DNA of 64,000 nt, from contig CAZTFB010000001.1 in NCBI GenBank assembly GCA_964612595.1, forward strand, positions 387,058 through 451,057. Direction: 5' to 3'. This document shows, piece by piece, positions 43,002-62,116 of the stretch. How positions within the stretch are numbered: the stretch's first letter is position 1; every line of letters starts with the position of its first letter. A program made the position numbers and the translations under genes. This DNA is from an uncultured Gammaproteobacteria bacterium. Lineage in GTDB: Bacteria; Patescibacteriota; Microgenomatia; UBA1406; HO2-37-13b. The notes below the pieces were generated by a model. The model saw nothing but the letters and a program-made list of their open reading frames with translations, ran no database searches and was not told where the DNA came from.

Positions 43002-44615
43002 TCACTTGGAGAGGTCGCATAGCGGTCTAGTGCGAAGGTCTTGAAAACCTTTGTGGCGCAAGTCACCGTGGGTTCGAATCCCACCCTCTCCGCCAAATGG
43101 GATGCCGCCTCCACCAGCAGTGGATATGGACTGATATATGGCTCTAATCTGCGGGTTCGATATGCCTGGATAGTTCCATACCACCCCAGATGGGAAAATC
43201 GAACCGAGAAGCGCTTTTTTCTGACTAATATTTGATCGTTTATATGCTTCACCTAAGTCTGCTAGAAGTGTCTTCATAAAATCTGTTATCTTAGTCACAT
43301 CGTATTTCTGGAATGTTTCGTCATGCTTTGCAATCTGCGCTTTAAGGATCTTATCTTCGATCATGGCTTGTTGCTCTTTAAATATTTCGTCAGAATAAAC
43401 ACCTGAAAGATTTTTCTCAACTAATTGCTTTCGGATTTCATACAGTTTTGCTATTTCACTATCTGCCTCATTTCGCAGTTTTTGCAATCGTGATAGTCGT
43501 CTGAAATATTGTGTCTGAATAAAATTAATGCAAAGCTCTAAACATTCTTCAGTAGGAGTAATCCGTTTCAGCAGAGTTAATACATCTTCTTCTAAAACAG
43601 AAACTTTTATAGATGTTCCTGTGCATAACTTACTACATCGATAATATGCATATTTTGCAGTACGTCCTTTACTCCATGCTCCCGACATTGCAGCGCCACA
43701 TTTGCCACATTTTGCAAATCGTCGTAATGGGAAAGTGGGATTATCTCGCATTCGATGAGCGAGTGCTATTTTGTTTGGATTCCTACCGTCTAGAATAGCT
43801 TGCACTCTATAAAACTGCTGCTCAGATATCATTGGCGTATGTTGACCTCGTACTTCATCTGGATTTCTGCGTGAGACAAGTATTCCCATGTAGAATTTCG
43901 ATCGAAATATTCGATGAAGTGTAGAAATTGATATTTCGTGTACTCTCGTGCCGGTTTTCTTGCGCATTCCCCACTTATTCATAATATCCTTCATTTCCTT
44001 TATACTCTTTGTTCCAGTCGTCATTAAATCCCACGCTTTTTTCATTTTGTCATACGTTTCTGGATCTTTGACCGCGTAGCCACTCTTCAAGATGTAACCA
44101 CAAGGAGGAGGCGAACTAAGGAGTCCTGATAAAAATCGTGCCCGTAACCCATTTCGAGCCCGTTCACCTCTGATATCATTATCAAGTTGGGCAAACCCCG
44201 CAAGAATTGTTTCTACGAGTTTCTCGGTTGGACTGTCACCAGTGGGCTCACTTGCTGAAAGTATATTAACGCCATTTTCAGCAAGCTTTTTCCTAATTGC
44301 CAGGTAGTCCGATGTTTGTCGAGAGATACGATCAATTCGATACACAAATACTGCGCTAATTTGTTCTTTATTTTTTCGACAATACTCGAGCAAGTTTATT
44401 AACACTGGTCTTCCTAAAATATTTTTTGCAGATCTTCCTTCTTCTCTAAAAATCATAAGAATTTCATATCCTCTTTTTATTGCCTCTTTACGACAGAGAT
44501 CTTCTTGTGTGTCTAAAGAGTAATTTTCGACTTGTTCCTCAGTTGAAACTCGTAAATATATTACTGCTTTTTTGAGAATCGCTTTCCCGTTATTCGGATT
44601 GTTAAATGGGTCCAT
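43002..44615 (-). CDS. Large serine recombinase (integrase)
   Basis: The N-terminal resolvase domain has AVIYLRVSTEEQ (nucleophile Ser) and YRIDRISRQ. It also has a recombinase domain, a zinc ribbon (CGKCGAAMSG...YYRCS) and a coiled coil. The last roughly 31 codons are antisense to tRNA-Ser. Confidence 0.9.
   Translation of the reverse strand: MDPFNNPNNGKAILKKAVIYLRVSTEEQVENYSLDTQEDLCRKEAIKRGYEILMIFREEGRSAKNILGRPVLINLLEYCRKNKEQISAVFVYRIDRISRQTSDYLAIRKKLAENGVNILSASEPTGDSPTEKLVETILAGFAQLDNDIRGERARNGLRARFLSGLLSSPPPCGYILKSGYAVKDPETYDKMKKAWDLMTTGTKSIKEMKDIMNKWGMRKKTGTRVHEISISTLHRIFRSKFYMGILVSRRNPDEVRGQHTPMISEQQFYRVQAILDGRNPNKIALAHRMRDNPTFPLRRFAKCGKCGAAMSGAWSKGRTAKYAYYRCSKLCTGTSIKVSVLEEDVLTLLKRITPTEECLELCINFIQTQYFRRLSRLQKLRNEADSEIAKLYEIRKQLVEKNLSGVYSDEIFKEQQAMIEDKILKAQIAKHDETFQKYDVTKITDFMKTLLADLGEAYKRSNISQKKALLGSIFPSGVVWNYPGISNPQIRAIYQSISTAGGGGIPFGGEGGIRTHGDLRHKGFQDLRTRPLCDLSK
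43008..43095 (+). tRNA. tRNA-Ser: tRNA-Ser (UGA), long variable arm, CCA encoded
   Basis: GGAGAGG TC GCAT AGCGGTCTAGTGC G AAGGT CTTGAAA ACCTT TGTGGCGCAAGTCACC GTGGG TTCGAAT CCCAC CCTCTCC G CCA. Confidence 0.9.
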
Positions 44616-44617
44616 AG

Positions 44618-44977
44618 TTATCCTAAATTTAATAACTCGTTAAGCGTCATTCCATCAAAAAGTTCTCGTTCATACATATCTAACCACGATTCAGTCAAAT
44701 ACTGAAGTAGAATAACTGTTTCTTGCAACTCATCTGTTGAGAATTTTTCCAACAAACTACCTAAAATAATCCGTGCCTGCTTGATAGATTTATCTTCACG
44801 ATTTTGCTCTGGAAAAATTTGACTAAGGAGCGCTGTCGTTGCATCTTGTTTTAGCGTGGGTTTATTATTAGAATGTGAAGTAGAAGCTGGAATATGAGTC
44901 TGGGATTGAAAGGGCACGATATTCTGATTTGCAGATTTTTGATTAATACTTATTGGTAACGTTTGAGTAAATTCCAT
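44618..44977 (-). CDS. Hypothetical protein (119 aa) directly upstream of the integrase
   Basis: Three-nt gap to the integrase start and divergent from the XRE gene. No motif recognised. Confidence 0.45.
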   Translation of the reverse strand: MEFTQTLPISINQKSANQNIVPFQSQTHIPASTSHSNNKPTLKQDATTALLSQIFPEQNREDKSIKQARIILGSLLEKFSTDELQETVILLQYLTESWLDMYERELFDGMTLNELLNLG

Positions 44978-44994
44978 GATTTTGTTATGATGGA

Positions 44995-45034
44995 CTATCC
45001 ATACTATGGATAGTATATATCCACAACATGGATA
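44995..45034. promoter_or_regulatory. Two palindromic operator-like sites sharing the half-site TGGATA(G)
   Basis: CTATCCATA c TATGGATAG (44995..45013) is a perfect 9-bp inverted repeat. TATCCA caaca TGGATA (45018..45034) is a 6-bp inverted repeat. Both lie in the 131-nt divergent intergenic region. Confidence 0.6.
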
Positions 45035-45093
45035 GTGTCAAGGGGTAAATTAGAAATAGTAACTAGTGACCCATAGTATTATTTAGGCCTATA

Positions 45094-45102
45094 TGTTATA
45101 CT
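45094..45102 (+). promoter_or_regulatory. Extended -10-like element TGTTATACT placed 6 nt before the XRE start codon (leaderless-type arrangement)
   Basis: The TGn-TATACT element ends at 45102 and the ATG is at 45109. No Shine-Dalgarno sequence lies between them. Confidence 0.35.
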
Positions 45103-60147: not shown

Positions 60148-60724
60148 ATTAGTGTTGTATAAGGTTAATTTGTCTGTTGCTTAGAATAAATTTTGAGTTT
60201 ACACCTTTGAGAATTTTAATTCTTTCTTCTGGTGTCCCATATTGAAGGACGTGGAGACCGGCAAAAAAGAGGCGGTAATGGTAGGGTAATTATTTCCTCA
60301 CTTGGAAGGGAGAAACCAGAACTATCCAATTAGATCCACCGACCGAAACTTGTAGTGAGGACCTGGACAAGAGTGCTCCCGGCTTATACCTCAATAGCAA
60401 TGGCGCTCCTTGCATCAAGGTCTACGAGACCACAGAACAGCCAAGTTTAAGCATTGCCTTTACGAATGGTGGACAACTCATCAACTTCTCTAATGAGATT
60501 GAAGGACCGCTTCCAAGAGCCCGGATACGCTAAGGATCCCCATGATTTCATTCAAACGTTTTATTCTTCGGACTTTTGTTGCCCTGATTGAACTCCAGGT
60601 GAAGCTATTCAAGACATTGGCCCACACCGACTCACGACGTCCCCAACGAGCGGTTCGAAGCTGCAGAGATGGTAACTACTCCATATGAGGCAGGAAAGTG
60701 GCACACAAGGCGACACGGTGGCAG

Positions 60725-61702
60725 CTATCCGTCAATATCGTTTCTAACCCAAGTTACTCTATTTTCTGTCGGTGGTTTCTCTACAAAACTTATTTTTTGT
60801 GCTTCTCTAAGTATTCTTTCAATTTCCTTTTCGTGATCAGACGAGGTTGTAGCAGTGTTTGAAGCCATGACTTGATCTTCATTACCAATGATGTAGTAGT
60901 CATTGCTCCCGTCCTTGGAAATCCTGTTAAGCACAGGTCTAATGGCATTCGTTCGTGTGTCTCTAAGAAAACCCAAGGCGTAGCAAAATTCATAGTCTGA
61001 AGAGACTCCAAGGACGGCAGTACCTGGCACATTTCCTTTCCATGTATGATCATCTACTATTTCAACCCACCCAACAGGGACTTCGACGTTTCCTGCTGAT
61101 TCAACACTTTCTGCATGATAAACAGCTGTTTTTTGATTATATTTGCTCTCTCGTTTAGTGTGGATACTTTGGAAGGCAGCATCAAAATATATTTCGTCGA
61201 TAATATCACCATCTTTATCCGCTAAAACTAGTCCGTTCCAAACATGATTCGATCCTTCCTTACAAAAATGTGTTTCAGATAACCCAGTATAGAAAGCCGT
61301 GACAGCCTGATTTGCTCCTCTTTGATTGAGCTTTTTGATTAGCTTCGACTCGTTCATTTGAATAATCCACTGCCTTCCAATGTCTCCACATTGACCATCA
61401 AGACGCCCGTTTATATCGTAGAACACGGGTAGATTTACGTAATCTCGTTCTTCTCGACTGAATATTTCAGCTGGGTTTTCTGAAAGCCTTGCTACCTTCT
61501 CTGGACAAAGATCATATCGGAACTGAGAAGTAAAAAACCTAACATCCTCCACTTCTGCAGGAGTAAACCCCCAAGCCTCTAGTTTTTTTTGGGCCTCACC
61601 AGAGATCCTTGTTGGTGGCAACGGCTCTACCCCCTCCTCAACTTCAAGGTGTCCCAGATTTTTGAACGCATTTTGGTATGGATTTTCGCCGACTTCTCCC
61701 AT
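60725..61702 (-). CDS. Hypothetical protein with transglutaminase/papain-like Cys-His-Asp arrangement (putative)
   Basis: GQCGDIGRQW (Cys), then GSNHVWNGLVLADKDGDIIDEIYFDAAF (His and Asp), resembles the transglutaminase-like core order. Confidence 0.3.
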   Translation of the reverse strand: MGEVGENPYQNAFKNLGHLEVEEGVEPLPPTRISGEAQKKLEAWGFTPAEVEDVRFFTSQFRYDLCPEKVARLSENPAEIFSREERDYVNLPVFYDINGRLDGQCGDIGRQWIIQMNESKLIKKLNQRGANQAVTAFYTGLSETHFCKEGSNHVWNGLVLADKDGDIIDEIYFDAAFQSIHTKRESKYNQKTAVYHAESVESAGNVEVPVGWVEIVDDHTWKGNVPGTAVLGVSSDYEFCYALGFLRDTRTNAIRPVLNRISKDGSNDYYIIGNEDQVMASNTATTSSDHEKEIERILREAQKISFVEKPPTENRVTWVRNDIDG

Positions 61703-61726
61703 CAGGATATGATATCATAGGGAAGT

Positions 61727-62014
61727 ATGTCTAAGTACAACGGATTTCAAAAAATATCTTATAGAGATGCCTTTGCACTTATTGGTTTGCATGATAAGAA
61801 TGAGTCTACTTATCACTTAGCAAACATGATTATTGAGATCGAAGATGGTGGATTAAAAATCACCTACTTAAGTCCTTCTAAAGCCGCATCTCCTGATCAA
61901 ATACAACATACCTCTGAACCCTTTAGGTATACCCACAACAAAGTTAACTACCTAATTGCAAACGAAGACAATAAGCTTGCGGTTTACGAAGAAGAGCAAG
62001 TCATAGGAAGTTAG
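61727..62014 (+). CDS. Hypothetical protein (95 aa)
   Basis: ORF only. Confidence 0.35.
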   Translation: MSKYNGFQKISYRDAFALIGLHDKNESTYHLANMIIEIEDGGLKITYLSPSKAASPDQIQHTSEPFRYTHNKVNYLIANEDNKLAVYEEEQVIGS

Positions 62015-62076
62015 GACTTTTCTTATTGGACAGCTGTTGCTGACCTCAAATCGGATATGTAGATATAGCCTGGATA

Positions 62077-62116
62077 ATTCTGTATAATTTCTATAACGTT
62101 GTTCACAACGTTCCGC
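62077..62116 (+). repeat. Copy B of the 40-nt repeated promoter-like/palindrome module
   Basis: ATTCTGTATAATTTCTATAACGTTGTTCACAACGTTCCGC is 32/40 identical to copy A. It contains the palindrome AACGTTGT tc ACAACGTT (62095..62112) and lies 45 nt upstream of the TerC-family start. Confidence 0.7.

Follow-up and report, generated by a model that had tools for sequence, protein, structure and literature searches.

How two large serine recombinase (LSR) genes of different families came to stand one behind the other beside a single, undamaged tRNA gene is the question raised by a 64,000-nucleotide stretch of DNA (positions 387,058 to 451,057 of contig CAZTFB010000001.1, GenBank assembly GCA_964612595.1; hereafter, the window) from an organism labelled an uncultured Gammaproteobacteria bacterium and placed by the Genome Taxonomy Database (GTDB) in the Patescibacteriota (Microgenomatia; UBA1406; HO2-37-13b). 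Between its tRNA-Ser(UGA) gene and a gene of the TerC family lie 23 open reading frames (ORFs), on an island mapped to 43096-62121 (19,026 bp). A preliminary description had placed this island within five bases of the mapped coordinates and had read it as the product of integrations that followed one another at a single tRNA site, the older element being displaced and decaying, and that reading has been borne out at base-pair resolution. The island is, with high probability, a tandem array of two unrelated integrative elements, stacked one after the other at the 3′ end (CCA) of tRNA-Ser. Element L (43096-53892; 10,797 bp), the younger insertion, adjoins the tRNA and belongs to an L-type LSR family, and element R (53893-62121; 8,229 bp), the older and compositionally mosaic insertion, lies beyond it and belongs to an R-type LSR family. 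Both ends of both elements have been located, and the mapped junction (53892/53893) and right end (62121) agree to within a few bases with the earlier estimates of about 53.88 and 62.1 kb. Demonstrated here are the limits of both elements, their order of insertion and their decay, together with a family-wide tendency of the recombinase genes to read into tRNA 3′ ends.

The tRNA-Ser(UGA) gene (43008-43095, + strand; found by ARAGORN and scoring 59.2 bits in Rfam) is intact and is the integration target, forming the left arm of attB. Its T-loop, GGTTCGAAT, occupies 43071-43079, and its 3′ 30-mer is common to the tRNA-Ser genes of very many bacteria from many phyla. The recombinase of L (43002-44615, − strand) reads antisense through the whole of this gene, where its last ~31 codons lie. 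It is, as had been proposed, an intact LSR; it has 537 amino acids, with the catalytic motif YLRVSTEEQ and three Pfam domains: Resolvase (2.2e-31; residues 17-161), Recombinase (3.6e-9), and Zn_ribbon_recom (9.7e-10). The protein is 93% identical to, and of equal length with, the homologue P0001, and the L-type family comprises 120 clusters among the matches listed, at 61-93% identity. The antisense signature of the T-loop is found in the tails of 53 of these 120, and another 45 end just after the antisense of the acceptor stem. L-type relatives were located at tRNA-Ser(UGA) (locus L215), tRNA-Ser(GCU) (L217), and tRNA-Glu(UUC) (L218), and the recombinase ORF overlaps the tRNA in every case.

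A second LSR gene, in the same orientation as that of L, occupies 53881-55331 (− strand), with 85-87% nucleotide identity to intact genes in three related loci (L221-L223). It had been described as dead, and it is: its first ~57 codons, the region of the catalytic serine, are gone, with homology to the intact genes ending at 55331/2; a TGG codon has become a stop at 54933-54935; and a frameshift near 54800 divides the tblastn segments between two frames. In Pfam the remnant retains only positions 55-143 of the Resolvase profile, together with partial Recombinase and zinc ribbon domains. Intact R-type homologues (534-569 amino acids; identity up to 93%) end in '...IR(A/T)(Q/R)W' followed by 'RRRWDSNPR...', which corresponds to a tRNA 3′ end translated in antisense from the CCA onward (W = TGG). 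This tRNA-form tail is carried by 64 of 108 full-length R-type proteins, while 33 reach a stop within seven codons of the W and nine have an uninterrupted form. In the window, the R recombinase reads '...IRAQW RT*', running past TGGCGGA into the arm of L, because L has inserted exactly there.

The consequence for the order of insertion is direct. R was inserted before L, since L cuts the tail of the R recombinase gene off the tRNA. When L is deleted in silico by joining 43008-43095 to 53893 and onward, the R recombinase tail 'AQWRRGWDSNPR*' is restored, and the resulting junction is colinear with the natural locus L223, where the 3′ end of an R-type LSR gene with 93% identity extends 39 nt into a tRNA-Ser(UGA) gene (1684-1771). 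The far end of R was found through the same gene. The nine uninterrupted R-type proteins carry a different, mutually related tail after the W, for example 'WLRIVNNVRTIIQQSDGFYIPDLRS', and a counterpart is encoded at the far side of the island: read in antisense, 62118-62041 gives '*LRNVVNNVIEIIQNYPGYIYISDLRS', with TGA before it in place of the expected TGG. The attP-form tail of R assembled in silico is 55-62% identical over 52-58 amino acids to those of P0171, P0172, P0159, and P0197, and the arm DNA has an exact 13-mer, AACGTTGTTCACA (window + strand), in common with L224, the locus of P0171. The encoded tail and the DNA match to L224 therefore place the distal (P) arm of R at 62041-62121 (− strand) and the end of the element at its attR core, TCA (62119-62121), giving a length of 8,229 bp. 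A search for a second TCCGCCA-plus-T-loop site as the end of R had failed, and the end was located by the protein tail instead.

Composition bears on whether R is an element at all. The preliminary description had reported a host-like left part and a visibly GC-richer right part, of which the difference has stood up, in that G+C does vary along the profile and one part is unlike the other, but the spot counts behind it were exaggerated. Host DNA (1-43000) has a bulk G+C of 39.6%, and its 34 genes have a G+C at third codon positions (GC3) of 0.319 +/- 0.036, with a maximum of 0.392. L has a bulk G+C of 35.5%, below every equal-size host window (minimum 36.9%), although its genes mostly show host-like GC3 values of 0.25-0.35. 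R is a mosaic: its bulk G+C of 41.7% falls within the host range (maximum 42.2%), but its genes at 53.9-57.4 kb are clearly foreign (GC3 0.48-0.54), while those at 57.5-62.1 kb are host-like (0.27-0.36). Tetranucleotide distances to the host, 0.0164 and 0.0168 for the two parts, lie at the top of host variation (maximum 0.0172), and GC3 is more informative here than bulk G+C.

The bulk value and the host-like genes from 57.5 kb on could be taken to mean that only L is an element and that 55.3-62.1 kb is ordinary host DNA beside a stray recombinase pseudogene, and it accords with this that no cargo gene of R is held in common with other R-type elements. Such a reading nevertheless deserves little credence. 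An R-type distal arm lies 8.2 kb from the recombinase body and directly before terC, the GC3 of the genes nearest the recombinase exceeds the host maximum, a kinase-like protein of R has only four homologues in 5.8 billion proteins, and none of the genes in this stretch occurs near terC in 25 relatives.

The ends of L have been defined with similar precision. The only in-register sequence common to both of its junctions is the 7-bp core TCCGCCA, present as attL at 43089-43095 (+ strand), where it comprises the acceptor end, the discriminator base, and CCA, and as attR at 53886-53892; within 43-64 kb, exact CCGCCA occurs only in the first of these and at 53887. The stretch 53790-53892 (+ strand), which includes the attR core, also holds a mimic of the T-loop, GGTTCGAAT, at 53863-53871. 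When L is circularised in silico, its recombinase ORF continues beyond '...IPFGG' on the antisense strand from 53885 downward, where it reads '...PDASLFEPIVSHFYSLMQFY...', and the attP-form recombinase thus rebuilt (545 amino acids) aligns through the arm with the natural tail '...IPIGDPSALYIEPALTWFTSLMEFY...' of P0060, at 46% identity over 59 amino acids (E 4e-16 against a set of 120 tail sequences). Because of this alignment, 53790-53892 is identified as the distal arm of L itself. Searches for direct and inverted repeats found none from the tRNA that would mark att sites, and the absence of long direct repeats is expected for serine recombinases. Exchange is limited to the terminal 7 nt or fewer of the tRNA, and the tRNA survives integration because these bases are identical in both partners.

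An alternative placement of the crossover, inside the T-loop, would make the 9-nt repeat GGTTCGAAT (43071-79 and 53863-71) the core, as in many islands of tyrosine integrases, and would have L carrying its own copy of the tRNA 3′ end. The repeat does stand at both L junctions and nowhere else in 43-64 kb (the one further copy in the window is the T-loop of a tRNA-Ile gene, at 23802), and in two Logan assemblies the contig breaks off at 53861, two bases short of it. The sequence that follows the repeat from 53872, agagacgcatcagg, is not a tRNA 3′ end, however, and cannot pair as a T-stem or acceptor stem. On this model junction reads would take the form ...GTGGGTTCGAAT+agagacgc, as against ...CCCTCTCCGCCA+TTGTGCACG with the TCCGCCA core, and the site without L would be a broken tRNA. 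The frame of the R recombinase, together with L223, puts the break at TCCGCCA, 14 nt further right. The contig break would also be predicted at 53863 rather than at the observed 53861, and the T-loop crossover is accordingly regarded as highly improbable. Scarcely credible is a single composite element with two recombinases, integrated once: elements with multiple serine recombinases are known from the literature, and every Logan contig over the L/R junction or over R matches the window at 100% identity, but it is exactly at the tRNA-derived core that the R tail is broken, by a distal arm homologous to L-type attP-form tails, the two parts differ in GC3, and elements of each type are found alone at tRNAs elsewhere.

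On the reading of two stacked elements, the history of the locus began with the tRNA CCA followed by about 40 nt and then terC, an ancestral junction of the form tRNA-Ser directly, then ...CACCACCAACACGC..., then terC. R integrated first, its recombinase gene abutting the tRNA and reading antisense into it. L then used the TCCGCCA core again and came to lie between the tRNA and R, severing the tail of the R recombinase from the tRNA. The R recombinase was subsequently lost through its 5′ deletion, nonsense codon, and frameshift. L, in turn, has kept an intact recombinase while losing most of a coupling-type ATPase gene and the whole of a Replic_Relax gene, and is now a patchwork of truncated genes.

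What the recombinases recognise at the tRNA can be approached through the spacing of motif and core. From GGTTCGAAT to the core is 9 nt in the tRNA and 14 nt in the distal arm of L. In R-type tails of the tRNA form, the T-loop antisense codons D-S-N stand at positions 6-8 after the W, while the nine attP-like tails have (V/I/F)-R-(T/N) at codons 8-10, which is compatible with TTCGAAC and again amounts to a shift of 5 nt. For the integrase of a Listeria phage, the 9-bp zinc-ribbon motif is 5 bp closer to the centre of attB than to that of attP (PMC3783163), and the offset in L and in the R-type tails matches this spacing rule of the Listeria LI integrase. The zinc-ribbon domain is inferred to recognise the T-loop GGTTCGAAT in the tRNA (attB) as well as its mimic in the distal arm (attP), 5 bp further from the crossover, and strand exchange would occur at a dinucleotide inside TCCGCCA. 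Since the right half of L's integration site is R's own arm and the symmetry between half-sites is low, recognition may rest mainly on the tRNA half-site. More broadly, it can tentatively be proposed, as a possibility rather than a probability, that the universal T-loop and CCA end serve as attB for two LSR families, both abundant, found in Patescibacteria and neighbouring phyla, by way of an attP mimic 5 bp further out and with one half-site dominant.

Several observations weigh against the account given so far. The crossover candidates suggested by analogy and by comparison differ: the Listeria geometry (motif positions 11-19 and 16-24) predicts TC at 43089-90, inside the shared core, and the sole dinucleotide common to the attL sites of five relatives is CC (43093-94). 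The right half-sites show little symmetry with the left, with TTCG/CGAA alone at an equal distance in the reconstructed attB and no counterpart in attP; one half-site would therefore dominate recognition, an unusual arrangement for LSRs. The attR core of R is TCA, not CCA, and calls for one substitution or for a crossover confined to the last two bases, CA. No attR was found within 10 kb in the L-type relatives L215-L218. The interior of R, as already mentioned, shares no gene with other R-type elements, so that not all of it need be original cargo. Neither a natural empty site nor a strain without L or R was found among the GTDB relatives compared; the preliminary description had suggested looking for tRNA-Ser directly followed by terC, and none was found among 25 terC loci of relatives because synteny around terC is not conserved in those available. 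Finally, there is no read-level sign of excision. Independent Logan assemblies of SRR15237800 and SRR15237813 break exactly at the 30-mer 53861-53890, which lies within the distal arm and core of L, and two other samples read through it; neither of the simple products of excision accounts for this break. The ends of Logan contigs at 43091 and 43070 were also considered as excision polymorphism, a notion rejected on the grounds that the tRNA 3′ 30-mer, shared across phyla, explains these breaks exactly.

The host flank beyond R begins with the terC gene (62161-63081, + strand; Pfam TerC 2.5e-51), whose start lies 39 nt past the end of the element. Its product is 82% identical to that of a Candidatus Woesebacteria metagenome-assembled genome (MAG) and 75-76% identical to those of Roizmanbacteria and related MAGs. 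In the first of these, the nearest terC relative, a different tRNA-Ser gene (CGA) lies 2.85 kb upstream, and no island gene is held in common. TerC is also 52-58% identical to proteins of Cytophagales (Bacteroidota). Many of the MAGs with the closest TerC proteins are labelled 'uncultured Gammaproteobacteria', and the named MAGs of similar TerC identity are Patescibacteria. On the other flank, two host genes upstream of tRNA-Ser (40891-42915) have weak cohesin (482 amino acids) and dockerin (187 amino acids) matches, both below the Pfam cut-offs.

The gene content of L is best understood against that of its relatives, whose core comprises the recombinase, a protein of 115-136 amino acids, usually an XRE regulator, an ATPase of 850-922 amino acids (DUF8128, DUF87, and TraG-D_C in Pfam), and a Replic_Relax protein of ~244 amino acids, the last of these being present in L215, L217, and L218. 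Upstream of the L recombinase is a 119-amino-acid protein (44618-44977, − strand) whose homologues (115-136 amino acids) hold the same position in L215, L217, and L218. It is without a match in Pfam, PHROGs, PADLOC, or NCBIfam, and its position makes it a candidate directionality factor. The XRE-family switch gene noted earlier in the left part does encode a regulator of 66 amino acids (45109-45309, + strand; Pfam HTH_3 4.6e-12; 94% identical to its L215 equivalent), and between it and the divergent recombinase operon stand three copies of a 9-nt motif (44994-45037), ACTATCCAT (inverted) followed by ATGGATAGT twice, which also appear as inverted repeat I6. As read from the sequence, this cluster is a likely candidate for an XRE operator.

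Genes of type IV secretion system (T4SS) type had been ascribed to the left part, and only fragments of them are present. The coupling-type ATPase gene (45367-46158, + strand) is reduced to its N-terminal ~260 codons, at 41-52% identity to the L215, L217, and L218 proteins, of which it matches residues 1-246, 12-260, and 61-243, respectively, and no match to the remainder was found downstream. No Replic_Relax homologue was detected anywhere in the window by tblastn with the relatives' protein. A VirB4-like ATPase (50445-51965, + strand; Pfam P-loop_TraG 1.1e-26) lacks its N-terminal ~220-290 residues: its CagE_TrbE_VirB match starts at profile position 107, its homologues (723-786 amino acids; 49-57% identical) align from their residue 221-291 on, and the structure 4AG5, the VirB4 C-terminal domain, is matched at 7e-35. 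Directly before it is a P-loop helicase stub of 109 amino acids (50119-50448, + strand) that covers only the first ~65-70 profile positions of AAA_19, AAA_30, and the PIF1 N-terminus in Pfam, and whose GC3 (0.445) is unlike that of its neighbours. L thus has neither the relaxase of an integrative conjugative or mobilisable element nor an intact coupling protein or VirB4, both of those genes being truncated, and the decay that the preliminary description had assigned to the older element extends to the transfer genes of L. Perhaps L may still excise, yet it would do so without the transfer genes that its relatives would use; its present-day mobility, like the mobilisation of L-type elements through a T4SS, is conjectural.

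The remaining genes of L include three hypotheticals of 333, 304, and 305 amino acids (46142-48969, + strand), the translations of which each show one N-terminal hydrophobic anchor, in agreement with the anchored proteins reported earlier, and none of which has a Pfam or PHROGs match. They are followed by a SET-domain protein of 247 amino acids (49368-50111, + strand; Pfam SET 1.2e-16) and, beyond the VirB4-like gene, by an M23 peptidase (51949-52707, + strand; Pfam Peptidase_M23 6.8e-14), a membrane protein of 256 amino acids (52710-53480, + strand), and a protein of 84 amino acids (53482-53736, − strand), the last two without a significant match.

Cargo differs elsewhere in the L-type family. 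An element at tRNA-Glu(UUC) with the recombinase P0010 (L218, 1-11596; also L219 and L220), which probably lies in the same genome as the window, carries an intact 850-amino-acid DUF8128 ATPase, a Replic_Relax protein, a 673-amino-acid Ser/Thr kinase, and BlaI/BlaR-like genes. L217 (2938-4107) carries an SduA_C (Shedu-type nuclease) protein and a PIN/MazE pair, and defence-type cargo therefore occurs in the family, though not in the copy in the window. Scans of viral contigs with the L recombinase and with an attL/attP 16-mer returned one 29%-identical locus and chance matches.

Among R-type relatives, the loci L221 (LSR at 3381-5012) and L222 hold a 92%-identical recombinase, P0123, whose tail, 'ARWRGSRD', abuts a non-tRNA sequence ending in ...CTGCCCCGCCA; no tRNA was found in this locus, and integration may have taken place there at a pseudo-site sharing only the CCGCCA core. 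A metagenome scan with the tRNA 3′ half returned only unrelated organisms, with the exception of L131. On this contig from an unrelated metagenome (2682-5009), tRNA-Ser(GCU) and tRNA-Ser(UGA) genes precede, by about 215 nt, an R-like recombinase gene and an XRE gene; the recombinase shows 39% identity to the resolvase portion and does not overlap a tRNA.

The cargo of R begins with the high-GC3 block (55423-57402; GC3 0.48-0.54), which consists of a 215-amino-acid hypothetical (− strand), an XRE regulator of 75 amino acids (56147-56374, − strand; Pfam HTH_3 2.8e-19), and a secreted-looking protein of 289 amino acids (56533-57402, + strand). The last of these has the sole well-placed AAGGAGG ribosome-binding site (56520-56526). 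Strong sites of this kind had been held to characterise the right part, a claim that the counts contradict: the motif occurs seven times in the window against 6.05 expected, three of these in R, and only this one precedes a start codon. Next is a two-gene unit (57540-59405, − strand) encoding a 300-amino-acid hypothetical and the 319-amino-acid protein with a kinase-like fold. The four homologues of the latter, besides itself, keep the motifs D132-N139 (D-x-D-R-x-x-x-N) and D153-F154-G155 (DFG) invariant. Its AlphaFold2 model is of medium confidence (pLDDT 71.4, pTM 0.77), and its best fold match in the PDB, CtkA of Helicobacter pylori, is weak (E 7e-4, TM 0.40). Toward the right end (59731-62014) there follow a HEPN-like protein of 138 amino acids (+ strand), which scores 21.8 bits against a HEPN cut-off of 22, a 325-amino-acid hypothetical (60725-61702, − strand) without a match in Pfam, PADLOC, NCBIfam, or PHROGs, and a 95-amino-acid hypothetical (61727-62014, + strand) without a match in the first three of these.

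The defence or effector cargo earlier attributed to both parts is mostly unsupported, and what is left of it (the SET domain, the sub-threshold HEPN match, and the weak kinase-like fold) amounts to a weak suggestion, not a finding. PADLOC gave no match for 10 cargo proteins, and the island does not qualify as a defence island. Nor does it qualify as a prophage, with no PHROGs match for 10 hypotheticals and no phage domains in Pfam. NCBIfam and PDB sequence searches of the cargo yielded nothing usable.

Elsewhere in the window, an ORF-poor region (24880-25635) just after a tRNA-Ile/Phe/Gly cluster reaches a G+C of 62%, against 39.6% for the genome, and its + strand folds at -266.9 kcal/mol, compared with -221.7 +/- 6.9 kcal/mol for shuffled sequence (z = -6.5). 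No Rfam family was matched there at the gathering score or at E <= 0.01, and the region is a candidate for an unannotated structured RNA. A tRNA-Ile gene with the anticodon UAU (23751-23825), uncommon in bacteria, is kept in a related Microgenomates contig (L215, 15575-15649).

It is well established that islands stack at tRNA genes and that their older, degraded members are displaced outward (PMC7192596; tycheposon preprint 10.1101/2020.12.28.424599). The present array resembles Islander/TIGER islands and the tycheposons of Prochlorococcus in the repeated use of one tRNA, in the newcomer standing next to the tRNA, and in the integrase gene beside it. Nearly all of those arrays are the work of tyrosine integrases, whose crossover falls within the tRNA gene, and partial copies of the tRNA remain between their elements. 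Here both integrases are LSRs, the crossover is confined to the final 7 nt or fewer, and there is no displaced fragment of the tRNA: what is repeated amounts to 7 nt at 53886-92 and 2-3 nt at 62119-21. The integrase of phage mv4 likewise targets the 3′ end of a tRNA-Ser gene, but it is a tyrosine recombinase. A 2020 genome-wide survey described serine integrases as 'not known for targeting tRNA genes', with 14 of 297 cases, unproven (PMC7192596). No later report of tRNA-targeting LSRs, and no description of these Patescibacteria LSR families, was found in the searchable literature.

The phage LSRs of Listeria A118/LI, phiC31, and Bxb1 are the same three-domain enzyme and likewise leave no long direct repeats at their junctions. 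Unlike these enzymes, which target protein-coding or intergenic sites, the recombinases of L and R have the T-loop and acceptor end of a tRNA as the left arm of attB, their ORFs cross attP so that the C-terminal tail changes on integration, their right half-sites look weakly defined, and no phage genes were found with them. The SSV1-type archaeal integrase, a tyrosine recombinase, also has its attP inside the integrase gene, which is split in two on integration; in L and R the att site likewise lies within the integrase ORF, but integration exchanges no more than a tail of ~30 residues and leaves the catalytic and DNA-binding domains untouched. Streptococcal integrative mobilisable elements with serine recombinases offer a further comparison for L. 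Like them, L-type relatives are small (~10 kb or more) and lack a complete secretion apparatus while encoding an integrase, a coupling-type ATPase, and a Replic_Relax protein; unlike them, they reside in Patescibacteria, and the copy in the window has lost both transfer genes. T4SS loci of Patescibacteria are mostly without relaxases, and the chromosomal T4SS is thought to be non-conjugative (PMC12102498). L-type elements with a coupling ATPase and Replic_Relax are worth noting because relaxases are rare in the phylum.

Stacking at a tRNA is thus ordinary, and what is unusual here is the class of integrase, the CCA-end target, and the T-loop mimic. If the proposed model of the attachment sites is true, recognition through one half-site would let close relatives land on Ser-UGA, Ser-GCU, and Glu-UUC tRNAs, and the enzymes would recognise a sequence present in nearly every bacterium without damage to the tRNA, a property relevant to broad-host-range integration tools. 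These enzymes would then also offer a natural test of the 5-bp spacing rule between attP and attB. For the organisms themselves, L and its relatives represent a conserved type of mobile element in the Patescibacteria, a phylum in which both mobile elements and the role of the T4SS are poorly understood.

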